Below are positions 3,981 through 21,109 of a stretch of 21,109 nt of DNA, in pieces. Under the pieces are notes generated by a model, which saw only the letters and a program-made list of their open reading frames with translations, was not told the origin of the DNA and did no database searches. Source of the DNA: a virus (lineage: Duplodnaviria; Heunggongvirae; Uroviricota; Caudoviricetes); IMG/VR virus record IMGVR_UViG_2695420876_000008. One strand, written 5' to 3'. Position numbers and translations under genes: made by a program. Within the stretch, counting starts at the first letter, position 1; every line of letters begins with the position of its first letter.

Positions 3981-3981
3981 C

Positions 3982-5927: not shown

Positions 5928-5945
5928 CCCCCCTTACCCCCCTTA
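5928..5945. repeat. Tandem CCCCCCTTA x2 inside a C-rich block (5914-5956) in the 410-bp intergenic region
   Basis: Direct reading: aat CCCCCCTTA CCCCCCTTA CCCTCTTCCCC. Confidence 0.6.
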
Positions 5946-6053
5946 CCCTCTTCCCCATAAAAACGTACTACTTCCCTAGTACACATGAGGAGTTGGGTCA
6001 GTTGGTTGCCAACCTGAACAGGCACCTTTAAGCCTGCTTCTGTTCGGGTACCT

Positions 6054-6362: not shown

Positions 6363-6612
6363 ACAAGCCCTTCACCTCCCCCGTGCGCGCTAAGCTTGGA
6401 TGTGGAAAAAGCTCTGGTAGGTCTGGCCGAAATTCATACGCTTGGATCTTTCCGTCGACAGCTGCAACCAATAACGGCACAAATTCTGGTGAAATCTTGT
6501 TCTTGCAGTTCAACCAATCGCAGACTGTTGACTGGGCCTTTCCGCATCGCTTGGCTAAGGCTTGCTGACTTCCAAGAATCTCAATAGCTTTCTCTATGGC
6601 TTTATGTTTCAT
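6325..6612 (-). CDS. Cro-like repressor (YdaS-type HTH)
   Basis: MKHKAIEKAIEILGSQQALAKRCGKAQSTVCDWLN...AYEFRPDL resembles the YdaS/Cro-like HTH pattern as recalled. Start chosen at ATG 6612 with SD AGGAG 8 nt upstream, not the track's 6663. Divergent from the CI-like gene. Confidence 0.75.
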   Translation of the reverse strand: MKHKAIEKAIEILGSQQALAKRCGKAQSTVCDWLNCKNKISPEFVPLLVAAVDGKIQAYEFRPDLPELFPHPSLARTGEVKGLYVPELRSDRDAI

Positions 6613-6634
6613 AATCGCATCTCCTATTGAACGC

Positions 6635-6663
6635 ATAATAACAACAGGAAAAGCGATATTCAA
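6635..6663 (-). promoter_or_regulatory. Candidate pR-like promoter for the Cro-like operon
   Basis: Minus strand: -35 TTGAAT (plus 6658-6663), 17-nt spacer, -10 TATTAT (plus 6635-6640), about 20 nt upstream of the cro SD. Confidence 0.4.
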
Positions 6664-6679
6664 CGTTAAACATAGAATA

Positions 6680-6699
6680 TTTATCGGAAAGCCGATAAA
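6680..6699. promoter_or_regulatory. 20-bp perfect palindromic operator candidate, TTTATCGG-AAAG-CCGATAAA
   Basis: Perfect 8-bp inverted arms with 4-bp spacer between the divergent cro-like and cI-like genes. Confidence 0.55.
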
Positions 6700-6731
6700 C
6701 TAGCCAAGATAGAGAGGGGAGGAAAATCGCA

Positions 6732-7424
6732 ATGACATTTTCAGAACGACTTGATTTAGCTATGCGCAACGCAAAATTTACGCAAGGTAGGCTGGCCAAA
6801 GAAGTGGGTATGGCTCAGTCCAGTGTTAATCAACTACTTAACAAAGCCAACGGTTCCAGAAAAACAGTCGAAATAGCAAAAGTTTTGGGCGTTAACCCGG
6901 AATGGCTCGCATCGGGTGTTGGCCCAATGGAAATCGTGACCTCTGCAGACTCACACCAAATACGTAACATTTCTGAAGATTGGGTTACTGATTCGTATGT
7001 CGTGGATGTTTTAGACATCAGATATAGTTGCGGACCTGGTAGTTATAACTCTGATTTTCCTGATATTGTCAGATCTATAGCGATAGAACCAGGATACGCA
7101 TCAAGAGTTTTTGGCGGCAGACCAGCATCAGCAATCAAAGCAATAAACGCCCACGGCGACAGTATGAAAGGCACAATAGACCCTGAAGACTTGGTATTTG
7201 TAGATGTATCAGTTCGCACATTTAATGGTGATGGTATATACGCCTTTACATACTCTGGAACATCGCACATCAAAAGACTTCAAAAAATCAAAGATACTCT
7301 AACGGTGATATCTGACAACCCAGCTTACAAGGATTGGGCTATCGAACCGGAAGACTTCGAACAACTTCACATTGACGGAAAAGTAATTGTCAGTTGGCCT
7401 ATGACACTACACCGTTTTGCATAA
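6732..7424 (+). CDS. CI-type prophage repressor (N-terminal HTH + C-terminal LexA/S24 autopeptidase domain)
   Basis: HTH segment QGRLAKEVGMAQSSVNQL; S24 catalytic motifs GDSM and HIKRL; SD GGAGG 9 nt upstream. Confidence 0.9.
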   Translation: MTFSERLDLAMRNAKFTQGRLAKEVGMAQSSVNQLLNKANGSRKTVEIAKVLGVNPEWLASGVGPMEIVTSADSHQIRNISEDWVTDSYVVDVLDIRYSCGPGSYNSDFPDIVRSIAIEPGYASRVFGGRPASAIKAINAHGDSMKGTIDPEDLVFVDVSVRTFNGDGIYAFTYSGTSHIKRLQKIKDTLTVISDNPAYKDWAIEPEDFEQLHIDGKVIVSWPMTLHRFA

Positions 7425-7442
7425 GCAAAAATCATTTAACCC

Positions 7443-7468
7443 GCCCACTCTTAAGTGGGCTTTTTTTT
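7443..7468 (+). terminator. Intrinsic terminator after the repressor gene
   Basis: GCCCACT-ctta-AGTGGGC hairpin followed by T8. Confidence 0.7.
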
Positions 7469-7484
7469 GGGAAAAAATCGATAA

Positions 7485-7518
7485 ACCGATTGACAGGTGA
7501 AATCGGTAAACCTATTAT
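7485..7518 (+). promoter_or_regulatory. Candidate pL-like sigma70 promoter overlapped by an operator-like inverted repeat
   Basis: -35 TTGACA (7490-7495), 17-nt spacer, -10 TATTAT (7513-7518); inverted repeat ACCGATT (7485-7491) / AATCGGT (7501-7507); half-sites related to the 6680 palindrome. Confidence 0.5.
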
Positions 7519-7567
7519 CTTGACATAGGTATCGAACTCACCAAAGCAATTATAGAGGATGAGAAAA

Positions 7568-7978
7568 ATGTCATCGTATATGGGATTACCAACAAATCAG
7601 CACGATGCTCTTGAGAATATTCAGCTCTTAGTAGGGACTGGTGCACTACTGTATAGCAGCAATAACCCTGAGTTAATTGAACTTGCCAGCTCCATCCTGG
7701 CTGTAACTCAAAAATATAGCCTCACCGCGTCACGTTTATGCAAACAAAATTTAGCTATTAATTCCCAGAATCGGATTCGCACCCAACGCGAAACCTGCGG
7801 CTTAACAACCGCCGAACTCGCTAGGCTGCTCGATCTCGATGAAGAAATTATCATCCAGTGGGAGAGCGGAGAGTACGAACCAACCATCAGCATGCTTATC
7901 CCTCTGGCTAATGTTCTTGGCTGTGATCCAATGTTGTTATTGACTGATGCTTATAAACAAAATCAGGAGGAAGCATAA
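7568..7978 (+). CDS. HTH_XRE-domain protein (C-terminal HTH, uncharacterised N-terminal domain); first gene after the pL-like promoter
   Basis: C-terminal LTTAELARLLDLDEEIIIQWESGEYEPTISMLIPLANVLG is a Cro/C1-type HTH. Start at ATG 7568 preferred (SD AGAGGA upstream); the track's 7559 is in frame. Confidence 0.65.
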   Translation: MSSYMGLPTNQHDALENIQLLVGTGALLYSSNNPELIELASSILAVTQKYSLTASRLCKQNLAINSQNRIRTQRETCGLTTAELARLLDLDEEIIIQWESGEYEPTISMLIPLANVLGCDPMLLLTDAYKQNQEEA

Positions 7979-7979
7979 G

Positions 7980-8171
7980 ATGAAAATGTTCAAAGGCCTT
8001 ACCAACGAACCGGAGACAACTTTTCATCACATTGCCGTACTGCTTGAAGCGGGGTTAATCATTTCGGCTTCCGGTGATGAAGAATGTGATGAACTTTCGG
8101 ATGATATCTTTTTACTGGCACAACAATACGCCAGAAGCGCATGCGATGCATTTAAGGAGCAAAGAACATGA
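7980..8171 (+). CDS. Hypothetical small acidic protein (63 aa)
   Basis: ATG 7980 with SD AGGAGG about 10 nt upstream (shorter than the track ORF); stop overlaps the next start (ATGA). Confidence 0.5.
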   Translation: MKMFKGLTNEPETTFHHIAVLLEAGLIISASGDEECDELSDDIFLLAQQYARSACDAFKEQRT

Positions 8172-8359
8172 AAACTCCATTAAATATTCTTGAGGAAGTG
8201 GCAGCACAAATAAAAGAGAATACATCAATGCTTGAATTTATATTTAAGAATTCGCCCGACTCAGGAGAGACAGACGATTATTTATGTTGCCTCATTCGCT
8301 CCATGAATAAAACCTGTGAAATGGCTTACGCGTATATCGACACACTGCGCAACGAATAA
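8168..8359 (+). CDS. Hypothetical small protein (63 aa)
   Basis: ATG 8168 with SD AAGGAG 9 nt upstream; translationally coupled to the previous ORF. Confidence 0.55.
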   Translation: MKTPLNILEEVAAQIKENTSMLEFIFKNSPDSGETDDYLCCLIRSMNKTCEMAYAYIDTLRNE

Positions 8360-8543
8360 AGAAAACTCAATAAACAATCACCCATAAAAACATAACGGTC
8401 TCTGGTCGGGAATTTCCACAACCTGAAAATGGTGGTGATGCATGAAAAACAGAAGTGCTTATAAAACCGCATTATTAATGGCTAATGCAGGATACTGGTC
8501 AGTTGCAATACTGTTTCTCAGGAAAGCATACGGGAAATAACAA

Positions 8544-8903
8544 ATGACACATGAACCCATTAATACATATCGTCGCCGTATAGCTGTTGCGGCACTCCAT
8601 CGAATAAAACGTAAAACAGGTGGTAATCTGCTTATTGTTGACCTTCCTGATGGGAACATTACGACCATAGAAATAACTGAACAGTTTATAAACCAGTTGC
8701 TGTTACGCTTCGAAGGTATTACCCGTGGTGAATTGGGCCGGGTGGAGGGTGAAACCGAAATCCACACTGCATACCAGAATGCTATCGGGATTAATCAACA
8801 TACTGAATACCTGACTGAAACCGGAAAGTTAATTATAGACAACCTTTTTCAAGAGATTATTGATTACGCGAAAGAAAAATATATCAGCGGAGGAATTAAC
8901 TGA
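8544..8903 (+). CDS. Hypothetical protein (119 aa)
   Basis: ORF with weak SD; coupled to the next ORF. Confidence 0.5.
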   Translation: MTHEPINTYRRRIAVAALHRIKRKTGGNLLIVDLPDGNITTIEITEQFINQLLLRFEGITRGELGRVEGETEIHTAYQNAIGINQHTEYLTETGKLIIDNLFQEIIDYAKEKYISGGIN

Positions 8904-9118
8904 TGGCTAATTTATCCCCTGTATCTGTTGTGCACGAAAAAGTGCAGATCGTTATGACAATTGAAAATGGCCAAGTCACAGGTGTCTGCAAAGTCCGCGA
9001 TGGCGAGCTGATTGCCAGCATGGATACATTCATACGGCTGGCAGAAAGAGCGGGGTATCAGATAACAGCACCTGCTCAGGAGGAAACCGGTGGCATTAAC
9101 AGCAACACGCATTCCTGA
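8903..9118 (+). CDS. Hypothetical protein (71 aa)
   Basis: ATG 8903 overlaps the upstream stop (ATGA-type coupling); SD GGAGGA 9 nt upstream. Confidence 0.5.
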   Translation: MANLSPVSVVHEKVQIVMTIENGQVTGVCKVRDGELIASMDTFIRLAERAGYQITAPAQEETGGINSNTHS

Positions 9119-9304
9119 GCGGATCCACCGGCAGGCATTGCAGGTCCTGTTGTTGTACCGATGCCGACGGATATTTCCGCATCGGATACAGCGCACCGGA
9201 TATCTCAGTCTGAAGGTTAACCGTCGCTGGCGGCTGTTATCGAAAGACGACGGCCGGAACTGGGAAGTAATGAGTCATGAACGTTATTCGGGAGAAATAA
9301 AGAA

Positions 9305-9697
9305 ATGATCGACAACCGCACCGCCAGCACCATTGACCAGGCATTACAGAAACATGATACACCCGTCGGCCCGTTATTTTTTGTAACACGCCACGGAAGA
9401 ACAAAAAAATGCCTCACCCGAAAAACGGCAATTCGTTACCTAGCATTCTTTATGACCACCCGCGCTTTTGAACGTTCAGGATTCCGACAACGCTATCCTG
9501 ACAAGCGTTTTATCTTCAACAGGAATGAGATATGGAAACGTGGAGAATCAACCACAGAGTATACCCGCGCACACCAGCGAACAATCAGACGACTGCGCAG
9601 ACTCATCGCCAGGAAACAGTATACAGAAAAATGGTTCAGAAAATATGACACATGGAGCGCCGGATATTACGAACTGATGGCAACAAAACCATTCTGA
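9305..9697 (+). CDS. Hypothetical basic protein (130 aa, Arg/Lys-rich C-terminus)
   Basis: ORF MIDNRTASTIDQ...; SD GGGAGA about 11 nt upstream. Confidence 0.45.
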   Translation: MIDNRTASTIDQALQKHDTPVGPLFFVTRHGRTKKCLTRKTAIRYLAFFMTTRAFERSGFRQRYPDKRFIFNRNEIWKRGESTTEYTRAHQRTIRRLRRLIARKQYTEKWFRKYDTWSAGYYELMATKPF

Positions 9698-9757
9698 CGT
9701 AAACGAAATTAACCATGACGCAATTAAATAAGGCAAGCCGAATACATCAGGAGGACC

Positions 9758-9946
9758 ATGAACATTTATTTCAGAATAGTTATATCACTGGCAATTATCA
9801 CATGTATTTACGGATTAATCGTTCCGGCCCTCATATCAATGAAGGATACGGTAGCAGTGATTTCTGGCTTTGCTCTGGCGTGTCTGACCCCGCCCTGCAT
9901 TTATGCCATTTATAAGGGTCTTTCTTTTTCTAAGGATAAAAGATGA
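9758..9946 (+). CDS. Small membrane protein (62 aa, two predicted TM helices), first gene of the SPFH operon
   Basis: Strong SD AGGAGG 4-6 nt upstream; hydrophobic segments IVISLAIITCIYGLIVPALI and VISGFALACLTPPCIYAIY; stop overlaps the SPFH start (ATGA). Confidence 0.6.
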   Translation: MNIYFRIVISLAIITCIYGLIVPALISMKDTVAVISGFALACLTPPCIYAIYKGLSFSKDKR

Positions 9947-10770
9947 AAAAATTACTTTTTGCTTTAGCCCTTGTTCTGCCGACCATTGGCCTTGTCGGTT
10001 GCGATCGCGTTGAGCCTGGTAATGTGGGCATCAAAGTAAACAAACTGGGCGACGATAAAGGCGTCGGTGAAGTGGTCGGTGTTGGGCGCTACTGGACGGG
10101 ATGGAACACTGAGGTTTACATCTTCCCGACCTTTAAGCAGATGAAGACCTACGATGATCCATTCAGTTTCCAGATGAGTGACGGTACAACCATCGGCTAT
10201 CACATCGGCGTGGCCTACAAAGTTGATCCATCCAAAGTTACCACAGTCTTTCAGACCTACCGCAAAGGCGTGGACGACATTACCGACACCGACCTGCGCC
10301 AGAAGATAGCCGACGCACTCAACCGACTGGCCAGCAAAATGACCACCGACAAATTTATCGACGGCGGCAAGTCTGAGCTGCTGGATGCAGCTCTTAAAGA
10401 CATTCAGGAAGAAATGACGCCCATCGGTATTCAGGTAATGAGCCTCTCATATGTGGGTAAGCCGGAGTACCCACCTACTGTTATCGACAGCATTAATGCC
10501 AAAGTCACGGCGAACCAGAAAACCCTGCAACGCGAGCAGGAAGTAAAACAGCGCGAAGCGGAAGCCAACATGTTGCGCGCGGAAGCTGCCGGACAGGCAG
10601 ATGCGATTCGCACAAAAGCCCAGGCCGAAGCCGATGCTATTCGTTTACGCGGTGAAGCTCTGCGCCAGAACCCCGGTGTTATGGAGCTGGAAGCCATCAA
10701 CAAGTGGAACGGTACACTGCCGCAATACATGACCAGCGGTGCCAACACACCATTTATTCAGGTTAAGTAA
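9943..10770 (+). CDS. SPFH/band-7 (stomatin/prohibitin-like) lipoprotein
   Basis: Lipoprotein signal MKKLLFALALVLPTIGLVGC (lipobox LVGC); SPFH-like core followed by an Ala/Glu/Gln-rich coiled-coil tail (EQEVKQREAEANMLRAEAAGQADAIRTKAQAEADAIR); SD AAGGA. Confidence 0.85.
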   Translation: MKKLLFALALVLPTIGLVGCDRVEPGNVGIKVNKLGDDKGVGEVVGVGRYWTGWNTEVYIFPTFKQMKTYDDPFSFQMSDGTTIGYHIGVAYKVDPSKVTTVFQTYRKGVDDITDTDLRQKIADALNRLASKMTTDKFIDGGKSELLDAALKDIQEEMTPIGIQVMSLSYVGKPEYPPTVIDSINAKVTANQKTLQREQEVKQREAEANMLRAEAAGQADAIRTKAQAEADAIRLRGEALRQNPGVMELEAINKWNGTLPQYMTSGANTPFIQVK

Positions 10771-10813
10771 TACATATGCCCGGTATTACACGCCGGGCTG
10801 TCTGGAGATAAAA

Positions 10814-11563
10814 ATGAATATTGTAACCATCAACAACAAACAGTTTCCGGTAATCGAATATCGCGGTCAGCGTGTTGTGACATTTGCAATAATTGATGAC
10901 GTCCACCAGCGCCCGGAAGGTACCGCCCGTGCTGCGTTTAACCGCAACCGTTCTCACTTTATCGAAGGGGTGGATTTTCTTGAAATGACTGCGGACGTAA
11001 TACGTACGGAGTCACTTTCTGATGCCTTTGCCGCGCGAACTGCCAAAGGGATCATTCTTTTCGAGTCTGGTTACCTGATGTTGACGAAGCCTTTTAACGA
11101 TGCTCTTGCATGGCAGGTTCAGCGCGAACTGGTTAACAGCTATTTCCGAACTCACGCGCCGCTGACGGAAATGGAGATGATCGCTGCAATGGCCGCCGAT
11201 GCCGTTCGCCAGCAGAAGCGCCTGAGTCATGTTGAAGAGAAGATCGAAACGGTCACCAAAGCTGTGGAGAACATCAAACGCGGCACAATGCGCACCGGAT
11301 ATGTCGGTTACCGCCAGGTGGTAGCCAAAAGCGGAATGAGTGACGCCAAGTGTCGGAATCTGGTCAACGCCTACCACATCCCTACCGACACGCACGAATT
11401 TATGACTCCGGACGGTCTGTTGTCTCGCAGGGCTGTCGTCGAGCTTGAGACATTTATGGCGGCGTTCCACCAAATGATGTCAGAGGCTGAACCACGCGGC
11501 ACACGCTGGTATCACCCGAAGATGGGGCTTTTTCAGGTAATCGGATGGGAGGATAAAGCATGA
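10814..11563 (+). CDS. ORF6N-domain phage regulatory protein (antirepressor-like N-terminus)
   Basis: N-terminus FPVIEYRGQRVVTFAIIDDVHQRPEGTARAAFNRNRSHFIEGVDFLEMT fits the ORF6N pattern as recalled; ATG 10814 with SD TGGAGA. Confidence 0.7.
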   Translation: MNIVTINNKQFPVIEYRGQRVVTFAIIDDVHQRPEGTARAAFNRNRSHFIEGVDFLEMTADVIRTESLSDAFAARTAKGIILFESGYLMLTKPFNDALAWQVQRELVNSYFRTHAPLTEMEMIAAMAADAVRQQKRLSHVEEKIETVTKAVENIKRGTMRTGYVGYRQVVAKSGMSDAKCRNLVNAYHIPTDTHEFMTPDGLLSRRAVVELETFMAAFHQMMSEAEPRGTRWYHPKMGLFQVIGWEDKA

Positions 11564-12128
11564 TCATCCAGTCAAAACTTATTCGCGCCGCTCTGGTGTG
11601 CGCTGCTAAAAACGACGTTCGTTATTACCTGAACGGTCTTCACATCACGCCAAAACATATTGAGGCAACCAATGGTTTCGTAGCACTGCGCATGACTCAC
11701 GGCATCCGGACGAAGAAAAACATCATTGTCCAGTTCGAAGGTGGCGTCCCGGCCAAAGCCGAAACGACAGAGCTGATTTTTAGTAAAGAGCCGATCCTGT
11801 TCATCGCGACCAGTTTCAGCGCCGGCTGTCCATTACCGGCATTAAATTGGTGGACGGTTGTTTTCCGGATTTGGAACGCATCATTCCGAAAAAATTTGAC
11901 CTCTGTACACACCCGGTGATCCAGGCGGGTTACCTGAGTTATCCAGAGAAGATGTTTGGTCGTGAGCGTAAATTTATTCCCGTCCAGTTACGTTCCTCCG
12001 GTGACGGGCAAGCGGTCAGAATTCAGTTTGATTCCATCATCAACTCAATGTATGGCAATCCTGAATTTGTTGTGATGCCTTGTCGTGATCATGGCGATTT
12101 CAATGTGGCTCAGGAGCATCCGGAATGA
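11560..12128 (+). pseudogene. Sliding-clamp (DnaN domain II-III)-like mini-clamp gene, split by a -1 frame break around 11817-11835
   Basis: Frame A (11560-11919) contains DVRYYLNG and ATNGFVALRM; frame B (open from 11787 to 12128) contains IKLVDGCFPDLERIIPK and ends EFVVMPCRD. These align in order with E. coli DnaN segments DVRYYLNGM, ATDGHRLAV, KLVDGRFPDYRRVLPK and AAYVVMPMRL (from memory). Strong SD GGGAGG at the start. Confidence 0.6.
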
Positions 12129-12163
12129 AAATCGAATACCAGGACGCCGCAGGAGGTGAATCA

Positions 12164-12247
12164 ATGAGCTGGCCTGATGCAATCGTAACTCTGGGGGTGG
12201 TATTCGCAGTAGCGTTTGTTGTGTTCTCAATTTGTCGATGGGGATAA
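12164..12247 (+). CDS. Candidate small hydrophobic peptide (27 aa, single TM)
   Basis: ATG 12164 with SD AGGAGG 8 nt upstream; MSWPDAIVTLGVVFAVAFVVFSICRWG; below the ORF-track size cutoff. Confidence 0.3.
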   Translation: MSWPDAIVTLGVVFAVAFVVFSICRWG

Positions 12248-12251
12248 CCAC

Positions 12252-12494
12252 ATGTTCGCTTTGATTCAACGCGGTCAGATATACACGGACAGAGCCGGAT
12301 ACCCCGTGGTGATTACTCGCATCACTGAGCACTCAGTGTTCTTTCGACGGATGGACGGACGATCCGGGCGGGTACGCATTGGTGAGTTAAACTGCCTGTT
12401 CGAACATATTGACCACCAGGAGTACCGCAAAATTCTCGCGGACACTGAGCAGGAAAAGCACCTGAAAAAATTACGAGCCATAAAAAGGAAGTAA
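12252..12494 (+). CDS. Hypothetical protein (80 aa)
   Basis: ATG 12252 (MFALIQRGQIYTDRAGYPVV...) inside the longer track ORF; SD GGGGA upstream. Confidence 0.5.
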   Translation: MFALIQRGQIYTDRAGYPVVITRITEHSVFFRRMDGRSGRVRIGELNCLFEHIDHQEYRKILADTEQEKHLKKLRAIKRK

Positions 12495-12497
12495 AGA

Positions 12498-12644
12498 ATG
12501 AATAAAGCATTTGAACAATGGGTCCACCAGCGTTACGGCAATCGCTATGACCTGACGCGAGATGTTGACGGCTTCTACTGTCGTGAAGTTGTGAAGCGAA
12601 TGTTTGACGTGTGGTGCCACTGCCGTGGGCTGAGTGTTATGTGA
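12498..12644 (+). CDS. Hypothetical small Cys-rich protein (48 aa)
   Basis: ATG 12498 with SD AAGGAAG 8 nt upstream; MNKAFEQWVHQRYGNRYDLTRDVDGFYCREVVKRMFDVWCHCRGLSVM. Confidence 0.4.
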   Translation: MNKAFEQWVHQRYGNRYDLTRDVDGFYCREVVKRMFDVWCHCRGLSVM

Positions 12645-12652
12645 GGTGATGT

Positions 12653-12862
12653 ATGGGGCTGGATTGCGTGCCTATATCAACCTACTGCCGCGACGCGGGA
12701 GAAACGGTTGATGCCGTTAACAAACGGATACAAAGAGGAATATGGAAAGAAGGGGTTCATGTATTAAAAGTCGACGGAGTTAAAGAACGCTGGGTCGACT
12801 TAATAGAGGTTTCAAAATGGGCAAGAAAGAACAAGGATTATTATCTCTGCCAAGAGGAGTAA
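12653..12862 (+). CDS. Excisionase-like protein (Xis candidate)
   Basis: Small ORF immediately upstream of and overlapping the integrase start (classic xis-int arrangement); SD GAGGTGA upstream. Confidence 0.5.
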   Translation: MGLDCVPISTYCRDAGETVDAVNKRIQRGIWKEGVHVLKVDGVKERWVDLIEVSKWARKNKDYYLCQEE

Positions 12863-13942
12863 CTATTCGTAAGCATAAAACTGCTTCAACACTAGTTATC
12901 ACTTTCACATATAAAGGGGTTCTTTGCAGGGAGCCCCTGTCTCGGCTTGAGGCAAATACACGTGGTATTAAATATGCTGAGCGCCTGCTAGGGGAGATAC
13001 AAAATCAGATCGCCAGCGGAACGTTTGAATATGCGAAATATTTCCCCAGTTCCAAAAAACTGGAGTTATTCGGTGTAGTAAAGAAAACCAAAAATATTAA
13101 GTCCTATCTTGATGAATACCTGAAAATTTGCATGAACCGCAATCTGTCGCCGTCAACCATTGGCGGTTACGAAAAATGTCTATCAGCACTATCAGAACTA
13201 CATAAACTACATGTAACAGAATTGACGCCTGCGGTACTAAAAAATTGGATAGCCAGCCGAAAAACTAAGCTGAAAACAATCAGGAATAACCTGTCATTTC
13301 TGCGCAGCGCCATTGATGAGGCTGTAACTGATGGCCTGTTGACTATTAACCCGGTAACTCTTGTCAGCGCCAGCCGGTATCACGTGGTCGACAGGTGCCA
13401 TATATCAGCACTGCAAGTATCAGGAATGGCAGAATCTGTTCCGCTTCGCCTTCAATACAGGGCTACGCAGCTCTGAGCTATGCGCATTACGTTGGACCGA
13501 TATCGACTTTATAGGTAATACAGCGCACATACAGGCGGCCAGTGTCGTAGGGGTACTTAAAGGCACCAAGACAAAAGCCGGTACCCGTAAGGTGGAGCTG
13601 AACAGTGAGGCGCTGGCGGCCCTGCAGGCGCAGAAGCAATACACCTTTATGAAAAGTGAGTTCATATTCAGCGATCCGAAAACGGGAGATCCCTGGACGA
13701 ACGCCGACGCTATCCGTAAAAAAGCATGGGTGCCGACCCTGAAAAAAGCTGGTGTGCGCTACCGTAACCCGTACCAGACGCGCCACACATTCGCCACCAG
13801 ACACATTAGCCAGGGTGTAAACCTTTTCTGGCTTGCCGGGCAGATGGGGCATAAGGGGCCGGAAATGCTGTTCCGCAATTACGGTAAATACCTGGCTGAA
13901 TACGACGGGAAAACCGCAATGGAATCTGGAATGAAGAAGTGA
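12817..13942 (+). pseudogene. Lambda-family tyrosine integrase, split by a +1 frame break around 13365-13400
   Basis: ORF 12817-13476 has an arm-binding-type N-terminus (LPRGVTIRKHKTASTLVITFTYKGVLCREPL) and core-binding region; ORF 13361-13942 in the +1 frame has the catalytic domain (FAFNTGLRSSELCALRWTDIDF, YQTRHTFATRH, GHKGPEMLFRNYGKYL). Confidence 0.8.
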
Positions 13943-13955
13943 TTTGAAGAAAAAA

Positions 13956-13978
13956 CCCGGCAAATGCCGGGTCTTTTT
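13956..13978. terminator. Bidirectional intrinsic terminator between convergent int and the 255-aa gene
   Basis: A-run, CCCGGCA-aa-TGCCGGG hairpin, then TCTTTTT. Confidence 0.6.
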
Positions 13979-13983
13979 GATGG

Positions 13984-14751
13984 TTATTCTGTCGCGCCAC
14001 CTATCGAAACATAATCATGAAATTGATCGTCAATGAGTCGGTCCTTACAGATAACATGTACAATGTGACGACAACAGTTTTCATCATCATACGCACGACC
14101 CCAGCGAACAATCTCATCTACAGACAGATCATTCGCACTCCATGGCAAAGTACCTGAAACGCCACGCGCACCTGGACCAAGTATGTCCATAAATTTCTTC
14201 GTGCGTGAATTGTAGATCCGTACCTCGGCAATTCGAATGATGCTACTAGCCCAAAGAGCACCACCGGCAATACTTTGAATGTTATCGCAGATGAGAAACT
14301 CATGCTTTCGCGCAAGCATTTTATAGATCTCACGCGCCAAACCTGCTGATTGGAAATCCTGTGCGATAACAGCGCTTTTCACTTGCTTTCCGGTCATCAT
14401 CTGACCGTTCTCTTCGATAAAATTAAAGTCGTTGAACTGTATACGACCTATTCTTATCGTTTTGTTATCGTCTACCATATCAAGACCCAAGAGGGTATTG
14501 ACCAGATCCTGCATTGGAACCTTCGAATCAAGAAGGTCACTGCCATAGTCTAAAAAAAAGTCGTCGGTGGAACATCCCAGTTGATACACATCCAAGTAGT
14601 ACTGAAACTCACCAGAACTGACAATGTACTCATCAGCCCTCAGTAAGCCAGCCTCGGCAGTGAAAAAATAGAATGACTCAATAAGACGTTTTTCGCCAAA
14701 TGGCGTAATGTTCAAGTCCTTGTTATATGAAGGTATTAACGCAGGAGCCAT
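13984..14751 (-). CDS. Hypothetical protein (255 aa), second gene of the int-proximal cargo cassette
   Basis: ORF with ATG 14751, 11 nt after the stop of the upstream 113-aa gene; no family recognised. Confidence 0.6.
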   Translation of the reverse strand: MAPALIPSYNKDLNITPFGEKRLIESFYFFTAEAGLLRADEYIVSSGEFQYYLDVYQLGCSTDDFFLDYGSDLLDSKVPMQDLVNTLLGLDMVDDNKTIRIGRIQFNDFNFIEENGQMMTGKQVKSAVIAQDFQSAGLAREIYKMLARKHEFLICDNIQSIAGGALWASSIIRIAEVRIYNSRTKKFMDILGPGARGVSGTLPWSANDLSVDEIVRWGRAYDDENCCRHIVHVICKDRLIDDQFHDYVSIGGATE

Positions 14752-14762
14752 TCAGCAACCTT

Positions 14763-15104
14763 TTAATGGTAGTTAATTTCCCTGTAGTTCTTCTGCATGT
14801 ATAGAGCAATTGCCGCTTCAATTTTCTTCAGCAGATTACTGCTTACATACTGAGGATACTGATCTGCTGGCTTCACAACATAGCGCAATTTTTCTTTGTT
14901 CATGGCGATCTCAGCGAACGGGATCACGTCACCGTCACGAACCTCATTGTTCAATGTCACAATAAACAGCTGACGTGCCGGGGAGACACGATCACTCAGT
15001 CTTCTCACGAAGAACTCGTTTGCTGTGTTTGAGTCAACAAAAGAACTGACGAGTTGAGTCCGACGCTCAATCGTCTGTATCGATCTTCTCGCTACTGTTC
15101 TCAT
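14763..15104 (-). CDS. Hypothetical protein (113 aa), first gene of the int-proximal cargo cassette
   Basis: ATG 15104 with SD GAGGAG 8 nt upstream; no family recognised. Confidence 0.6.
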   Translation of the reverse strand: MRTVARRSIQTIERRTQLVSSFVDSNTANEFFVRRLSDRVSPARQLFIVTLNNEVRDGDVIPFAEIAMNKEKLRYVVKPADQYPQYVSSNLLKKIEAAIALYMQKNYREINYH

Positions 15105-15120
15105 GCTAGTCTCCTCAACA

Positions 15121-15244
15121 CTTCACTGGCTGTGCAGTGAAGGTACAAAAAGCCACTGATGATAACAGCGTCATCAGTGGCCCTTGATGGTGATAACCGC
15201 AGTTACCTAAATAGTATGATATTACCTTACGGGTAATTCTTCAA
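15121..15244 (-). promoter_or_regulatory. Structured leader of the cargo cassette: candidate promoter, terminator-like hairpin with U-tract, and a second hairpin abutting the SD
   Basis: Minus strand: -35 TTGAAG (plus 15239-15244), 17-nt spacer, -10 TATCAT (plus 15216-15221); 10-bp perfect stem CCACTGATGA/TCATCAGTGG (15153-15180) followed by CTTTTT; second stem CTTCACTG/CAGTGAAG (15121-15142) directly upstream of the SD. Confidence 0.4.
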
Positions 15245-15434
15245 CGATTGCTCTGAATTGAATAGTCTTGAAGTGCTATGAACAGCACAAAACAGCGCTA
15301 ATCACCGCCCCAGTGGCGCCTAAACACTTCAAAATGTTGGACAGAATCAGGACGTTAGAGGTACTACAATATGCACGTAAAATGCACGTGAGGTATTTTA
15401 AATTAGAAAAATCATTAATATTCAATTGGTTAAG

Positions 15435-15474
15435 AATTTTTCGGATACGGGTTCAACTCCCGCCAGCTCCACCA
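15435..15474 (+). other. ssrA (tmRNA) 3'-terminal fragment: T-arm plus acceptor 3' strand plus CCA; att-site duplicate, not an intact gene
   Basis: ...CGGATACGGGTTCAACTCCCGCCAGCTCCACCA matches my recollection of the E. coli tmRNA 3' end; no tmRNA 5' body (GGGGCTGATTCTGG...) is present upstream. Confidence 0.6.
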
Positions 15475-15508
15475 CTTTTTAGTTGTTTGAAGTTCAATGA
15501 AGTCTACT

Positions 15509-15542
15509 AAGCCCACACAGCACAAGCTCTGCGGGCTTTTTT
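15509..15542 (+). terminator. Candidate intrinsic terminator downstream of the ssrA fragment
   Basis: AAGCCC...GGGCTT imperfect long hairpin followed by T6. Confidence 0.4.
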
Positions 15543-15639
15543 ACGTCTATTGTCGTCCAGTGAGAATTGCTGAGAACTACGAGTTATGGCACCCTGAATG
15601 GGACCCACTAAGAAGGGTCCAAAAACCGAGGGTCCCAAA

Positions 15640-16869
15640 ATGGCAAAAATCGCTAAGAAGCTCACTGACACTGAAATCAAAAGCACCAAGCCAGCCGATA
15701 AAGAAATCAACTTGTTTGACGGTGATGGTCTGATTCTACGAATCGCTCCTTTGGCGAAAGGAGGCAAGAAAAATTGGTATTTCAGGTATGCAGTACCAGT
15801 GAGCAAGAAAAGAACCAAAATGAGCCTTGGGACATATCCTCACCTTACCCTTGCAAGAGCCAGAGCCTTACGTGATGAATATCTCTCCTTTCTGGCAAAT
15901 GGTGTTGATCCCCAAATCCATAACAACGATAAGGCGAAGGCATTAAAGAGTGCTACTGAGCACACTCTCCAAGCCGTAGCGCGGAAATGGTTAGATGAGA
16001 AGGTAAAGACATCAGGTATCTCACAAGACCATGCAGCAGACATCTGGCGCAGCTTAGAGAGAAATGTCTTTCCCGGTCTGGGTAATGTCCCTATCAATGA
16101 GATCCGACCTAAGCTCTTAAAACAACACCTTGATCCTATTGAGCAACGAGGCGTATTGGAAACTCTACGCCGTATCATTTCACGTCTGAATGAAATCTTC
16201 CGGTGGGCAGCTACTGAAGAACTTATTGAGTTCAACCCGGCTGACAACCTTGGTCAAAGATTCAGTAAACCAAAAAAGCAAAATATGCCTGCCCTTCCCC
16301 CAAGCGAATTGCCAAGGTTTATGGAATCTTTGACGAATGCGTCAATCCGGTTGGAAACACGTATGCTAATTGAATGGCAATTGTTGACATGGGTTCGTCC
16401 GGGTGAAGCCGTTCGCGCAAGGTGGTCTGATATTGATACAACCAACAGCATTTGGAACATTCCTGCTGATTTCATGAAAATGAAAAAGCTTCACAAAGTT
16501 CCTTTGAGTAAAGAAGCTTTGCGCATCCTTGAATTAATGAAATCAATAAGTGGGCATAGAGAATGGGTTTTCCCCAGCATAAAAGCGCCTCTTAATCATA
16601 TGCATGAACAAACAGCCAACGCAGCTATCATCCGAATGGGGTTCGGAGGCGAGCTTGTAGCTCACGGTATGCGTTCTATTGCACGAACAGCGGCAGAGGA
16701 GTCTGGTAAATTCAGAGCTGAAGTTCTTGAGGCAGCGCTTGCCCACTCGAAAAAAGATGAAATTATCGCAGCATACAATCGTGCAGAATATCTGATAGAG
16801 CGACAGAGTTTGATGCAATGGTGGAGTGATTACGTTCAAGCTCAAAGATCAAATGCTCTGGTAGCCTAA
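15640..16869 (+). CDS. P4-family tyrosine integrase (IntA/CP4-57-like, tRNA/tmRNA-site class)
   Basis: MAKIAKKLTDTEIKSTKPADKEINLFDGDGLILRIAP... N-terminal arm-type domain and C-terminal catalytic domain (HGMRSIARTAA, ...AYNRAEYL); lies directly downstream of the ssrA 3' fragment; start at ATG 15640 with SD GAGGG, not the track's 15598. Confidence 0.85.
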   Translation: MAKIAKKLTDTEIKSTKPADKEINLFDGDGLILRIAPLAKGGKKNWYFRYAVPVSKKRTKMSLGTYPHLTLARARALRDEYLSFLANGVDPQIHNNDKAKALKSATEHTLQAVARKWLDEKVKTSGISQDHAADIWRSLERNVFPGLGNVPINEIRPKLLKQHLDPIEQRGVLETLRRIISRLNEIFRWAATEELIEFNPADNLGQRFSKPKKQNMPALPPSELPRFMESLTNASIRLETRMLIEWQLLTWVRPGEAVRARWSDIDTTNSIWNIPADFMKMKKLHKVPLSKEALRILELMKSISGHREWVFPSIKAPLNHMHEQTANAAIIRMGFGGELVAHGMRSIARTAAEESGKFRAEVLEAALAHSKKDEIIAAYNRAEYLIERQSLMQWWSDYVQAQRSNALVA

Positions 16870-16907
16870 GTATCAGAATAGCTAATATAATCCTGAAGGT
16901 AAAGAAA

Positions 16908-17324
16908 ATGGAAACCCTATTCAAAGTTTTTGAAAAATTTAGTTCCAGACCACTTTTTTTTATTTTTTTCGGACTCTCACTTTGTGAATTTTTTCAGAAA
17001 CAATCTGTTCTGATGAATCCATCAGCAGATAACATCGCGAAATTATTCGCAGCCATGATATTAGTTGTTTTTTTTACTTGGGGATTTGAATGGCTAATCT
17101 TCAAGTTCAATGTAAACCTTGAACCTCATGATCAAGGCGATATTGGACCAACAATTGGAACGGCTACTTTAGCTGTATACTTAGTTTATGCCTTTCACTT
17201 TCTCAGTGAAAATCCTGAAGCATTAAATTTAAAGTTATTAACTAACTCTGGCTTTATATACAGCACAACTCTATTATTATTCTCATTAGAATGCATGAAG
17301 CTTAGAAGACTTAAACAAAAATAA
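16908..17324 (+). CDS. Hypothetical multi-pass membrane protein (138 aa), AT-rich island
   Basis: ORF with several hydrophobic helices (PLFFIFFGLSLCEFF, LFAAMILVVFFTWGFEWLIF, ATLAVYLVYAFHFL, IYSTTLLLFSL). Confidence 0.6.
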   Translation: METLFKVFEKFSSRPLFFIFFGLSLCEFFQKQSVLMNPSADNIAKLFAAMILVVFFTWGFEWLIFKFNVNLEPHDQGDIGPTIGTATLAVYLVYAFHFLSENPEALNLKLLTNSGFIYSTTLLLFSLECMKLRRLKQK

Positions 17325-17395
17325 ACAACATCATTGTGATGATAAATATAAAATAGGCATGGCGAAAAAAAATCACCACGCCTAAAATATAATAA

Positions 17396-19144
17396 TTATG
17401 GTAGCATCATTGATACATAATCCACACCAATCCTTGAGCTATACTGAGACGCTATAGCCTGATATCTTTCTGCATAACCAGTTCTCAGTTGAGATTTAAG
17501 TTTGAGTCGGACAGGAACATTTTGCACGTTGCCATCCATATTACTTAAAAACACGGCAGAAATAATATTTTTTTCTTCGCCATCAACTGTTGTTCCATGA
17601 TTCAACACCACCATATAATCAACAACAGGAAGCGTTTTATCCCCTTCGAAAATAGAGAGATATTTTCTTTGATTTTTATGCATTACATATATATATTTCG
17701 AATGTTCAGCAAATGGCAATGCTTTACTCTGACTGGCGTTAAAAAGCTCCAGAACTTTAATGAGCCTGTGCGGACTTAATCTTACATGGTGAGGGTCGTT
17801 ACCCTGAGTAGGAACCAAATCACATGCCGCAGATACACATAAATACCATTTGTTCGACTCTGTATCAAAGAAAATAGTGCCAGTAGAAATATGACCATCT
17901 TCAAAATTCTTTGAAGACAAATTCATATTTAAAGCATGATACATTTCGTGATAAGTATCATTATTTGATGGCAGATCCATTTTTGAAGAGCAATATTGGA
18001 GCAATGCAGCAACTCCGCTGTTAGCGTATTCATTTGAATAGCTATCAAAAACACTTTTGATAAATTCATCCAGCGTATTATTATTTTTAAGTCTTTGATA
18101 AAGCTCTTCTGATAAATTACCAAATACAAAGTCAATATTTCTACATCTAATATCAGGCGAGTCTGATTTTAATATCTCATTTAACCACGCAGCTTGACCG
18201 TAATGATCGTTAGCCAAATGATTTACAAAAGATAAAGCCTCAGCTTCGATTGCATTCTGAATTTCAGATTTTATTAACTGATAATAAGATGGTTTCCATT
18301 CAATGAGAGAATCATTGAGAGTTTGCCAAATCCTATCTCCATCGTTTTCATGATCATCTTGAACCTTATGAAATAGGGAGACAAAGATATTACCACATTG
18401 AATCCATTTTACTCCGCTTTCATCACCCCGAATGACATTGCCAGATGTGTTGCTAGAAATAATTGCATTTCTAGACACAGCATATTCTGCAATCATTTTT
18501 GCAATGAAGTTTTTATCCTTTTGTTCCTCCAACACAGCATCATCATGTATTAATCTTTTAATTCTTCTACAAGGCTTACTGTCTTTAATATAGGCTATTG
18601 TTTCATCTCTTGTGAGAGCTTTATTACCATTATCATTTAAGTTCGGTAATACAACGTCTTCCCAATAACTTTGGACATCTTCATTATCGTAGTCAATGAT
18701 CAAGCTGTTGATATCCAGAGCACCTTTGAGAGTCGATGATATCTGCATCCAAACCGTTTCTAAATTCTCTCTAGTATATATTACAATCATATTTAAATGA
18801 TCGGAGTCTTTCAAATCTTGTAATAGTTTAAGTGTTTTATCAGGTGCATTATTATCAAGATGATAATCTACAATAATAAGATCTGATTTTCTAATCCGAT
18901 CCACATCGAAATTAACAGAACCATTGTCAACATCACAAATCATATTTTTAGATTGAAAAAAGCTCTCAAGAGTAGCGGCTCGTTTAGATGAGTCAATTTT
19001 GTTGTAGTCTAAATCAACTTCGTTATTCAACGCCCTGATTGATTCAGAATACGTCAGAAAATCGTCATCAATCATGACAACGGAACGAATTGCATTTTCG
19101 CAGAAAGTTTTCTGGACAAGAGAATTATAATTTGCCACTGTCAT
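17396..19144 (-). CDS. Receiver (REC-like) domain protein fused to a ~430-aa C-terminal domain of unknown function; no DNA-binding output domain recognised
   Basis: N-terminal REC-like motifs VVMIDDD, DLIIVDYHL, MIVIYT; large uncharacterised C-terminal region. Start at ATG 19144 preferred (SD GGAG upstream; one nt after the kinase stop) over the track's 19162. Confidence 0.7.
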   Translation of the reverse strand: MTVANYNSLVQKTFCENAIRSVVMIDDDFLTYSESIRALNNEVDLDYNKIDSSKRAATLESFFQSKNMICDVDNGSVNFDVDRIRKSDLIIVDYHLDNNAPDKTLKLLQDLKDSDHLNMIVIYTRENLETVWMQISSTLKGALDINSLIIDYDNEDVQSYWEDVVLPNLNDNGNKALTRDETIAYIKDSKPCRRIKRLIHDDAVLEEQKDKNFIAKMIAEYAVSRNAIISSNTSGNVIRGDESGVKWIQCGNIFVSLFHKVQDDHENDGDRIWQTLNDSLIEWKPSYYQLIKSEIQNAIEAEALSFVNHLANDHYGQAAWLNEILKSDSPDIRCRNIDFVFGNLSEELYQRLKNNNTLDEFIKSVFDSYSNEYANSGVAALLQYCSSKMDLPSNNDTYHEMYHALNMNLSSKNFEDGHISTGTIFFDTESNKWYLCVSAACDLVPTQGNDPHHVRLSPHRLIKVLELFNASQSKALPFAEHSKYIYVMHKNQRKYLSIFEGDKTLPVVDYMVVLNHGTTVDGEEKNIISAVFLSNMDGNVQNVPVRLKLKSQLRTGYAERYQAIASQYSSRIGVDYVSMMLP

Positions 19145-19145
19145 A

Positions 19146-19982
19146 TTAGAACTCCACTCCATTGAACTGGATCACAAAATTAGCGCCATCTTTTATTAAA
19201 TAGTTATCGCCTTCATCAGGTTCTGAATACCATATTTTATGATGTGCAACAGCAAGGTTTTCTCGACATAGATACAGACCTACCCCATGTCCATTTGCTC
19301 TTTTGCTATAAAATAGTTCAAATAGTCGCGGGATATCATCGGTATCAATTGCCGGACCAGAATTTGCTATGATAACCAAAGAATTCACAAAACCAATCTT
19401 TATGAGCCTATTATTTGACAGACTGACCCAATACATTGCATTGTTGATAATATTAGTAAAAACAGGATAGATCCTTGATGGTATATCTGTTATTGCGATT
19501 TGCTTAAACTCTTCACTAAATTCAATAGTTATTCGTTGCCGTTCGAAACGCTCCCCAAAGAACTTCAGGACATAATCCATGATATTTTTTCCAGTTATTC
19601 TCTGCCTGGATTGATAACCTGATATTTTCAAAGGTGATAAGAAACGTATTTGTTGAGTAAGCGATCTGTGAGCATTTAACGCCAATGAAAAACCAGGGTG
19701 TTCTTTTACAGAAGTAGGAAGAGAGTTTAGTCCTCTGGTTACCATAGAATCCATTTCTTCAAGTTCATGAGATATTATCTCAACACTAATACCTAACTGT
19801 GCAAGCGCGTTTAAACTTTTAGCTTTTTCTTCAAAATATGAGCGTTCTTCTTCAGATAATGAGAATGCTGAATCTAAGTTTATACCTTCAAATAATCTAT
19901 CGAGACCTTTTATTATTGATTGATATTTGAAAGTTAGGGTATCAACTGACTCAACATATAAACTATCGAGCAAATTAAACAC
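19146..19982 (-). CDS. Histidine kinase core (DHp H-box + HATPase_c), cytoplasmic; start uncertain
   Basis: H-box ISHELEEMDS; N-box YPVFTNIINNAMYW; G1-like IANSGPAIDTDD; G2 GHGVGLYL. No ATG near the 5' end (track start is GTG); the frame stays open upstream to 20111. Confidence 0.7.
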   Translation of the reverse strand: MFNLLDSLYVESVDTLTFKYQSIIKGLDRLFEGINLDSAFSLSEEERSYFEEKAKSLNALAQLGISVEIISHELEEMDSMVTRGLNSLPTSVKEHPGFSLALNAHRSLTQQIRFLSPLKISGYQSRQRITGKNIMDYVLKFFGERFERQRITIEFSEEFKQIAITDIPSRIYPVFTNIINNAMYWVSLSNNRLIKIGFVNSLVIIANSGPAIDTDDIPRLFELFYSKRANGHGVGLYLCRENLAVAHHKIWYSEPDEGDNYLIKDGANFVIQFNGVEF

Positions 19983-20059
19983 ATTTTCAATTTGTGAATC
20001 ATTATCTATTGAATCAACAACTGATATAGTTTTAGCATAATAATCACTTCGATCAACCT

Positions 20060-20863
20060 TTATTTCATCGGCCCATTTTTTAAAAGAGAATGTATCTTCT
20101 CCTCTATCGTGTTATTAAACTTAGTTAGTTTAGAATTAATAATACCTTGATTTTTTTCAAGGTGATTTTTCGCTGACAATGAAGGCTCAAGTTTATTTAA
20201 TTCAGAATCAAGTTTATTAATTGCTAACTTCATTTGTAGAATATACGCAGAGAACTCATTAAATTTATCTCTGTAGTCTCTATATTTCTCTTCATACATT
20301 CCAAGTTTTGGAGGTTTGATAGGCGTTTTAATTTCACTGCGCAACGCATCTAAGTTTGTAAGATCACTGTCTATAATTTTAAGATAGTTTAAATCTAACG
20401 AACCATCAGTTTTATCAAGCTTAGTTTTCAGCCTTTTAACAGCCTCCAAGGAAGCATCAAGAACTGGTGTCTGATTCTTCAAAGCTTCTGAAAAACTTTT
20501 TTGTGTTGATTTTCGAGCTTGTTGTTGAGCAGATTTTCTTAACTCTTTTTCACGCTTAACTTGTTCTAAAAGCTCTTTACGGTCATCAGAACGTGAACCA
20601 AAAAATCTATCAGCAAGTTCAGTTAACAAATTAGATATAATAGTTTTCAGTTCTCTTGCAGCCTGGTTTCTTATGAATCCCTCTCTCCCCGACTTATCTT
20701 TCAGCTCTTTATTACTGGATTGAGTAATTCCAATATAACCAAAAATCCTTCTATTAGACCAATAATATCGCCCTGCATTCCATGAACGTCTTTCTTCTAT
20801 CTGGAAGAAATCATTATCTACTCGACCATAAGGTAATACTCTCAAGCTATCCCTAAAAATCAT
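20060..20863 (-). CDS. Coiled-coil-rich protein (267 aa); probably the N-terminal/linker part of the adjacent sensor kinase, itself likely 5'-truncated
   Basis: ORF starts at ATG 20863, but the frame is open for 42 more codons upstream, up to the IS3 junction at 20985; K/E-rich heptad-like sequence; separated from the kinase frame at the run CTTTTAAAAAATGGG (20071-20085). Confidence 0.5.
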   Translation of the reverse strand: MIFRDSLRVLPYGRVDNDFFQIEERRSWNAGRYYWSNRRIFGYIGITQSSNKELKDKSGREGFIRNQAARELKTIISNLLTELADRFFGSRSDDRKELLEQVKREKELRKSAQQQARKSTQKSFSEALKNQTPVLDASLEAVKRLKTKLDKTDGSLDLNYLKIIDSDLTNLDALRSEIKTPIKPPKLGMYEEKYRDYRDKFNEFSAYILQMKLAINKLDSELNKLEPSLSAKNHLEKNQGIINSKLTKFNNTIEEKIHSLLKNGPMK

Positions 20864-20984
20864 TAGTCCTGCATACTTTTTGGCCTTAAGATCAAAGTGG
20901 GAATGTTCACGTTCAGTATGTGATGTATTTTGTGAAAGGAATTCAAACGTTCCTATCTGAAGCTCAAATGGGCCGACCCCTGCG

Positions 20985-21109
20985 TGATCCTACCCACGTA
21001 ATATGGACACAGGCCTAAGCGAGGTTCTTGTTTTCAAATTGTTCCGGACTGAGGCCGCCACACCAACTGTGCCGCCGCCACCGATTGTAATCACATTCGA
21101 TATAATTAA
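20985..21109 (-). mobile_element. IS3-family insertion sequence, terminal ~125 bp (terminal inverted repeat TGATCCTACCCACGTAATATGGACAC...); remainder beyond the right edge
   Basis: Terminal repeat begins at 20985; minus-strand 21109-21015 encodes ...[30 protein letters not shown], which matches my recollection of the IS3 transposase (InsF/OrfB) C-terminus; abrupt GC shift relative to the AT-rich island. Confidence 0.7.
21015..21109 (-). CDS. IS3-family transposase (OrfB/InsF-like), C-terminal 30 codons; 5' part beyond the window
   Basis: Hand translation of the minus strand gives [30 protein letters not shown] followed by TAG at 21017-21015. Confidence 0.65.

Follow-up and report, generated by a model that had tools for sequence, protein, structure and literature searches.

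The window analysed here is a 21,109-nt stretch of DNA (IMG/VR virus record IMGVR_UViG_2695420876_000008) that corresponds to a segment of the Escherichia coli chromosome. It includes part of an integrative island at ssrA, and on this part lie two adjacent minus-strand genes, for a histidine kinase-like protein and for a receiver-like protein, which are the subject of this report. We found three minus-strand open reading frames (ORFs), at 20060-20863 (267 aa), 19146-19982 (278 aa) and 17396-19162 (588 aa). A preliminary description had taken these for three genes of an orphan signalling cassette, encoding a coiled-coil-rich protein, a kinase and a receiver protein. All three ORFs are present, but they represent only two genes, with the 267-aa and 278-aa ORFs being parts of a single kinase-like gene.

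The two parts are joined as one 572-aa ORF (named "ATP-binding protein" in RefSeq E. coli annotations) in 557 of the 561 E. coli genomes that have this stretch. In the window they are separated by the loss of one A from an A7 run (now A6; 20076..20081, minus strand), which changes LLKKWADEIK of the intact protein to LLKNGPMK*. The A6 form occurs in just four of the 561 complete genomes (the window and three others), in one of which RefSeq labels the kinase-like gene 'frameshifted'. Given this rarity, A6 reflects a recent mutation or else a sequencing error in the homopolymer. A second defect is that even the 572-aa ORF is a truncated form. Its frame is open upstream of the annotated Met as far as 20984, at the end of an IS3 element, and the translation at the IS3 junction (AGVGPFELQ...) corresponds to residue 377 onward of a 988-aa protein (P0147). 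This protein is intact in Serratia, Klebsiella and Salmonella, and the remnant covers its residues 377-988. The intact 988-aa orthologues show 99% identity across the common 572 aa and have a HATPase_c_3 domain at the N-terminus (37.1 bits versus a cutoff of 25 in P0147). This domain is missing from the window copy.

The 3' fragment of the gene (19146..19982, minus strand; residues 711-988) matches P0147 at 278 of 278 residues. It encodes a DHp domain (HEF_HK; 27.1 bits, Pfam cutoff 24.1), with H782 at 19769-19767, and a HATPase_c domain (46.1 bits, cutoff 26.4). The cytoplasmic histidine-kinase core with H, N, G1 and G2 boxes recognised in the preliminary description is therefore genuine; in NCBIfam the catalytic C-terminal domain showed only generic histidine-kinase similarity. 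The middle fragment (20060..20984, minus strand; residues 377 to ~680) comprises an S5/transducer-like region (with RVLPYG and DKSGREG motifs) and a coiled-coil linker. The 267-aa ORF, which starts at the internal Met417 (20863), matched nothing in Pfam; it is this transducer and linker, rather than a separate coiled-coil-rich protein. The intact kinase-like protein thus begins with a GHKL ATPase, continues through an S5-like transducer and a coiled coil, and ends with a DHp domain and a catalytic ATPase.

Residue conservation was assessed in 22 diverse homologues of the kinase-like protein, all of which retain the catalytic motifs of both ATPase modules and the His. Invariant positions include the GHKL motifs (E32, N36, D39; D61, G63, G65; G104, K106, G107, G109), residues of the S5-like region (R420, R424, P427, Y428, G429, K473-G478) and those of the kinase boxes (H782 and E783 of the H box; N887, N890 and N891 of the N box; G941, G943 and G945 of the G2 box). 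The most conserved part of the family is the N-terminal GHKL ATPase. With the H, N, G1 and G2 boxes all present, the kinase-like protein has the sequence features of a phosphorelay component.

The second gene (17396..19144, minus strand) encodes the receiver-like protein. The ORF is 588 aa long from 19162, and the RefSeq annotation gives 582 aa from the second Met, at 19144. Pfam identified Response_reg_2 at residues 25-181 (109.1 bits versus a cutoff of 27), and NCBIfam returned nothing. The receiver fold spans residues ~20-283 as a (beta-alpha)5 fold with a helical insertion, and its phospho-acceptor set is complete (D26, D27, D93 with its codon at 18868-18866, T124 and K260). This D-D-D-T-K set is retained across the receiver family. 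Modelled alone (predicted local distance difference test score, pLDDT, 84.7), residues 284-582 form a helical bundle, then a beta-rich domain and then a C-terminal helix. Invariant residues of this C-terminal module are N406, G422, T423, C436, C441, D442, P445, R460, Q552, R554, Y557, R571, G573 and D575. The receiver followed by a large unassigned domain that had been proposed is thus real, with a C-terminal module of ~300 aa. Across the receiver and C-terminal domains, C70, C436 and C441 are invariant and H403 nearly so (at least 90% of 49 sequences), and these residues are candidates for a metal-binding or active site.

The C-terminal module was not related to any known structure by Foldseek against the PDB, consistent with the preliminary description, which could not assign it. 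A profile search against PDB sequences gave chance matches only, and per-member Pfam scans at E values up to 5 gave noise. We did not identify an HTH or other DNA-binding fold in Pfam and fold searches, in agreement with the preliminary description, nor a PNP or nucleosidase domain in the receiver protein, nor a nuclease domain in either the kinase-like or the receiver-like protein. A profile search of 1.84 billion representative proteins recovered 654 clusters with the module. Nearly all are 560-680 aa long and have it at the C-terminus. Thus, the module appears to be used solely when fused to a Response_reg_2-type receiver.

Both genes lie in DNA with a GC content of 0.34 (16900-20984, versus 0.52 in the first 6 kb of the window). 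The left border of the island is a 36-nt copy of the ssrA 3' end (15439..15474, plus strand; tmRNA positions 328-363), which is an att-site copy and is 94% identical over 36 nt to the annotated ssrA of locus L001 (blastn). It is precisely at this fragment that the window starts to match the island common in E. coli. A tmRNA gene was not identified in the window by ARAGORN or Rfam, and a tRNA scan was likewise empty, so that ssrA is represented by the 36-nt end alone. Next to it is a gene for a P4-type tyrosine integrase of 423 aa (15598..16869, plus strand; Pfam Arm-DNA-bind_3, Phage_int_M and Phage_integrase), which has an equivalent position in the intact islands described below (L003-L009). 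The low-GC island beside a P4-family integrase at ssrA was correctly recognised from the start. Between the integrase and receiver genes is a gene for a predicted membrane protein of 138 aa (16908..17324, plus strand), to which Pfam and PADLOC assign nothing. Relatives were found by phmmer in 10 enterobacterial loci (E values from 1e-65 to 1e-92), in all of which the gene keeps its place between receiver and integrase, and in none of the distant loci. Since it is confined to enterobacterial copies, this protein looks like island cargo rather than a member of the conserved gene trio.

The right border is the IS3 end (20985..21109; terminal sequence TGATCCTACCCACGT...), where the kinase-like gene is cut. 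Every top E. coli match carries the annotation "IS3-like element IS3 family transposase" at this position. After IS3, E. coli genomes continue with a chromosomal alpha-amylase-like pseudogene and glaH. Thus, the methylase gene, the GHKL-coding part of the kinase-like gene and the island remainder were lost together.

What has been lost is apparent from intact islands at ssrA. These have, in order, the integrase gene, the gene for the 138-aa membrane protein, an operon on the opposite strand, and genes for a relaxase and three tyrosine recombinases. The operon, which spans 8812-14717 in L003, consists of a C5 DNA methylase gene (402 aa), the kinase-like gene, which it overlaps by 20 nt, and then the 582-aa receiver gene; the kinase stop (19146) and receiver start (19144) are 1 nt apart both in the window and in the intact islands. 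From the ssrA fragment to the IS3 junction, window DNA is 98.9% identical to the intact Serratia island (L003:11127-16673 versus window 15439-20985). The 98.9% figure was noted for the comparison of the E. coli remnant with islands in Serratia liquefaciens, Klebsiella and Salmonella. Such identity across genera points to recent transfer of the ssrA island between them.

We therefore read the region, with a probability of roughly 85%, as the left-hand remnant of a mobilisable ssrA island with a three-gene cargo operon (C5 methylase, 988-aa paraMORC-type kinase-like protein and 582-aa receiver). A deletion ending at IS3 would have removed the methylase gene, the first 376 codons of the kinase-like gene (including the GHKL domain) and the island remainder; the window copy additionally has a 1-bp frameshift. 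Because the methylase and the N-terminal ATPase are missing, the copy in the window is most likely non-functional and passively carried.

The decay is seen throughout E. coli. The same truncated block occurs in ~560 of 5426 complete E. coli genomes. In some of them, including a Shiga-toxin-producing strain (H41; NZ_CP027219.1 983298-986359), an IS3-family element also interrupts the receiver gene. One cluster (P0009; partial in the named NCBI record), with 1605 proteins from draft genomes, stops at receiver residue 453. The interruption and the end at residue 453 are further decay of the remnant. The block is not new to databases, as GenBank entry AJ304858.2 (prophage CP-1639 and its integration site) annotates it as a "remnant integrative element" with a "histidin kinase-like protein". 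In that entry (L057, 2050-4582) the kinase-like remnant, with a 614-aa ORF from 2738, seems to abut chromosomal b2657. IS3 is not annotated at the junction there; the window and the RefSeq genomes examined have IS3 at this position.

Could the truncated kinase and receiver protein still work as a stand-alone signalling defence or toxin cassette, as the preliminary description had proposed for the window copy? In 560 E. coli genomes the receiver ORF and the kinase half with the DHp and catalytic domains have stayed intact, with at least 99% identity. This speaks against regarding the remnant as dead, and it may have some residual activity. In addition, 34 of 222 kinase-like proteins were reported to be without the N-terminal GHKL domain (Bellieny-Rabelo et al., PMC8011034). 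However, all E. coli copies found have a single truncation junction, which indicates descent from one event, not selection. Both the methylase and the most conserved part of the kinase-like protein are gone, there is additional damage (the frameshift in the window and insertion sequences in the receiver gene of other lineages), the class without GHKL is at least in part an annotation artefact, and the remnant proteins matched no PADLOC model. We consider a working cassette very unlikely, and the window copy is better described as a decayed remnant.

The annotation artefact is illustrated by a Salmonella enterica genome (L058, GCA_009302835.1), in which 2720-5719 is a continuous kinase-like ORF of 999 aa. 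The NCBI annotation gives only the C-terminal 572 aa (start at 4001) and leaves 1.25 kb after the methylase gene unannotated. Pectobacterium, Klebsiella, Yersinia, Morganella and Serratia likewise have entries for proteins of exactly 572 aa, with 82-84% identity. We suspect that the start in L058 was set by homology to the abundant truncated E. coli protein, and that this protein is a source of misannotation of intact genes in other species. Starts mis-set in this way may inflate the published class of proteins without HATPase_c_3.

To define what is conserved beyond E. coli, we surveyed one genome per species. This gave 46 loci with a relative of the receiver, 40 of which have enough flanking sequence. 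The hosts are alpha-, beta- and gamma-proteobacteria, Planctomycetota, Myxococcota and Verrucomicrobia. A kinase-like gene (975-1124 aa) is directly upstream of the receiver gene in 40 of 40 loci (39 by script, and L037 by inspection), and a homologue of the C5 methylase is beside the pair in 38 (37 by script, and L037, where it is upstream of the kinase gene, by inspection). In the script count, the methylase gene is upstream on the same strand in 23 loci and just downstream of the receiver gene in 14. The neighbourhood is therefore conserved across genomes, a check that the preliminary description had called for. No further conserved gene was identified among 144 flanking proteins, which include Vsr (7), HNH_2 (3) and HNH (2-3), with the remainder being integrases, Tn7-like genes and unrelated genes. 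Ten immediate downstream neighbours were scanned, and one is an AspBHI/Mrr-type nuclease. The surroundings of the relatives are those of mobile elements (integrases, Tn7-like genes) and not housekeeping contexts, as had been expected. Only two weak matches were found in a collection of 72,556 plasmids. Phage collections likewise yielded only two matches, both of them prophage records that hold the same E. coli chromosomal remnant, and matches in PHROG appear to stem from prophage records of this kind.

An extra nuclease gene adjoins the trio in several loci (L013:10677-11435, L025:9906-10895, L051:9771-10463, L026:9987-11291 and L058:8511-9386). The types are HNH, HNH_2 (one with a ScoMcrA-type DNA sulfur-binding domain) and AspBHI_N with Mrr_cat. 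Several belong to nuclease types with modified DNA as their substrate, which is odd beside a methylase and is reminiscent of a proposal made for the Ambrosia system (see below).

Both window proteins belong to a family that has already been described but is functionally uncharacterised, so the pair is not a new cassette. Pfam PF19191 (HEF_HK) and PF19192 (Response_reg_2) date from 2021 and were built for precisely these two genes (Bellieny-Rabelo, Pretorius and Moleleki, Genome Biol Evol, PMC8011034). HATPase_c_3 is present in 83% of the family members. That study proposed that the pair regulates restriction-modification (RM) systems, included E. coli examples in its data set, and left the C-terminal two thirds of the receiver undescribed. 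The pair in the window shares with the family Pfam scores above the cutoffs, a kinase-like gene upstream of the receiver-like gene and a cytoplasmic location, and its intact orthologue has the full set of HATPase_c_3, HEF_HK and HATPase_c along with linkage to a C5 methylase and Vsr. The window copy differs in the absence of HATPase_c_3, the absence of the methylase and the frameshift. Our 40-locus survey agrees with, and extends, the published description. A separate report, the DefensePredictor paper, includes a system with HATPase and REC domains that is predicted but not validated, and that may or may not be the HEF_HK/Response_reg_2 family.

The N-terminal half of the intact kinase-like protein places it near the paraMORC ATPases, whose association with RM systems is documented (Iyer, Abhiman and Aravind, 2008, PMC2292703). 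Shared features are the N-terminal GHKL ATPase and its S5-like transducer, the proximity of genes for a C5 methylase and Vsr, and location on mobile islands. Here, in contrast, the GHKL domain is fused to a histidine-kinase core, and output would pass through a separate receiver rather than a fused PD-(D/E)xK nuclease. In the experimentally tested paraMORC3/Shedu protein VcSduA, the ATPase is fused directly to a nuclease, which the GHKL domain is proposed to gate (PMC12137116). A classical type II RM system also resembles the intact trio in its constitutive, tightly linked C5 methylase, in the occasional presence of Vsr and in its association with mobile elements. It differs in that the trio has no recognisable restriction endonuclease and has instead two large ATP-using signalling proteins.

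We searched PADLOC-DB 2.0 with the three ORFs, their neighbours, the intact kinase and the island ORFs, and the methylase was the sole match (the presence of Detocs models in this release is unverified). The PADLOC check that had been proposed therefore gave no defence model for the kinase-like or receiver-like protein. Detocs, to which the preliminary description had compared the locus, is a defensive two-component system, reported by Rousset and colleagues in 2023, with a kinase (DtcA), a buffer receiver (DtcB) and a receiver-PNP effector (DtcC). The two share a general logic, namely a phosphorelay from a kinase to a receiver domain fused to a non-transcriptional, non-DNA-binding domain. However, neither the window nor any of the 40 related loci has a buffer receiver gene, Pfam and fold searches gave no PNP or nucleosidase effector, the architecture of the kinase is different, and the third, obligatory partner is a C5 methylase. 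No model of PADLOC-DB 2.0 was matched by either protein at E 0.1 or better except at chance level. It is extremely improbable that the genes are of the Detocs type. The conserved C5 methylase partner gives the trio an RM-like character.

The closest experimentally studied system is Ambrosia (AbrR, AbrA, AbrB, AbrC and AbrD) of Pseudomonas aeruginosa, which is anti-phage and requires the receiver Asp (bioRxiv 10.1101/2025.09.30.679545). As in the intact trio, genes for a DNA methylase, a GHKL/histidine-kinase-like ATPase and a receiver protein are clustered. Residues 1-399 of AbrB matched P0147 in two colinear regions (BLASTP E values of 6e-11 for residues 8-125 and 4e-6 for residues 411-479), corresponding to the GHKL and S5-like regions; the window remnant retains only the second. 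The differences are considerable. AbrA is an N6 methylase and not a C5 methylase, and AbrB is shorter (747 aa). AbrC is a plain 209-aa receiver that carries no counterpart of the 300-aa orphan domain fused to the receiver here, and it is not detectably related to the 582-aa receiver, with a probability of 0.2% in a comparison with the receiver profile. The separate HNH nuclease AbrD has no HNH equivalent in the window or in the intact islands L003-L009. Ambrosia also has an XRE regulator, AbrR; small ORFs beside the methylase gene in L003 had no Pfam match (no search specific to XRE or HTH was made). Comparison with the sequences in the Ambrosia supplement led us to reject membership in Ambrosia, and we regard the trio as a cousin of that system.

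For the intact system, we propose a tentative model, which we rate well short of even odds, in which methylation marks discriminate self from non-self through a phosphorelay. The methylase would constitutively mark host DNA, and the MORC-like ATPase clamp of the kinase-like protein might sense unmarked DNA or another sign of invasion. The coiled coil would relay ATP-driven dimerisation to the DHp domain and the catalytic domain, resulting in phosphorylation of His782 and transfer of the phosphate to receiver Asp93. The phosphorylated receiver could then free its C-terminal module to act as a restriction or toxic effector. Vsr in seven loci suggests steady-state methylation of host DNA. Also in favour are the near-constant methylase linkage, the complete catalytic motifs of the kinase-like protein and the receiver, the many invariant polar residues of the C-terminal module and its exclusive fusion to this receiver, the homology to AbrB of a defence system, and the partnership of paraMORC ATPases with RM systems. 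The joint loss of the methylase and the kinase ATPase in E. coli would be expected if loss of the methylase alone were lethal, which is weak evidence.

Several observations weigh against this model. A separate HNH, HNH_2 or Mrr-type nuclease gene is found in about a third of related loci and could be the true effector there. In Ambrosia, phage DNA gained no protection from the methylase, and a role in transcription regulation was suggested for the receiver (bioRxiv 10.1101/2025.09.30.679545), which argues against simple RM logic in the cousin system. A regulatory role has in fact been suggested for the intact pair, in which the phosphorylated receiver would be no effector in its own right but would control the methylase or neighbouring restriction genes, at the level of transcription or activity. 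This was proposed both by Bellieny-Rabelo et al. (2021, PMC8011034) and in the Ambrosia preprint, where reporter genes were induced upon infection and the receiver mutant D60A was without defence. Separate HNH or Mrr-type nucleases in some related loci would be a possible regulated output. We consider such a regulatory two-component system rather improbable.

With regard to the effector step of the methylation-based model, it is possible, although we hold it somewhat doubtful, that the receiver C-terminal module is a new type of effector switched on by phosphorylation, be it a nuclease or a toxin built on a MazF/CcdB-like barrel. In that case the trio would represent an immunity class of its own, in which methylation status is read by a MORC-like ATPase into a His-Asp phosphorelay instead of leading to direct cleavage by a restriction enzyme, and the E. 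coli remnant would be its fossil. A variant of this step, which we judge unlikely, is that the beta-rich domain of the module is a toxin of the MazF/CcdB type, and that phosphorylation triggers abortive infection by RNA cleavage or gyrase poisoning, not DNA restriction. Comparison of the module with MazF by hhalign showed no similarity.

Positions 1-15438 of the window precede the island remnant and belong to a separate lambdoid prophage, a tandem insertion into the same ssrA site. Its genes encode a DEAD/DEAH helicase, a toprim protein, a LexA-like repressor, and SPFH and ORF6N proteins. The prophage integrase region consists of two overlapping ORFs (12817-13476 and 13361-13942); strain E110019 has a single 392-aa gene, and the window copy is perhaps frameshifted. 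Two minus-strand ORFs (13984-14751, 255 aa, and 14763-15104, 113 aa) separate the prophage integrase from the att copy derived from ssrA, and so lie in the usual spot for prophage accessory or defence cargo. They had no match in Pfam or PADLOC, and they fall in PHROG families 3307 and 2594, both of unknown function. At 1041-1213 (minus strand), also in the prophage, Rfam matched the gammaproteobacterial sRNA STnc100 with 108 bits (gathering score 47).

The window itself adds little, since its gene pair is a broken copy, Pfam families and a dedicated paper for such pairs exist already, and the E. coli block has an older GenBank label as a remnant. The intact parent system is of more value because it is rare, tightly conserved and moves between genera on ssrA islands, and it is a reasonable experimental target. 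If the tail of the receiver is indeed an effector, epigenetic self-marking and two-component signalling would be joined in one immune pathway, and bacterial MORC-type ATPases would gain a defined biochemical output.

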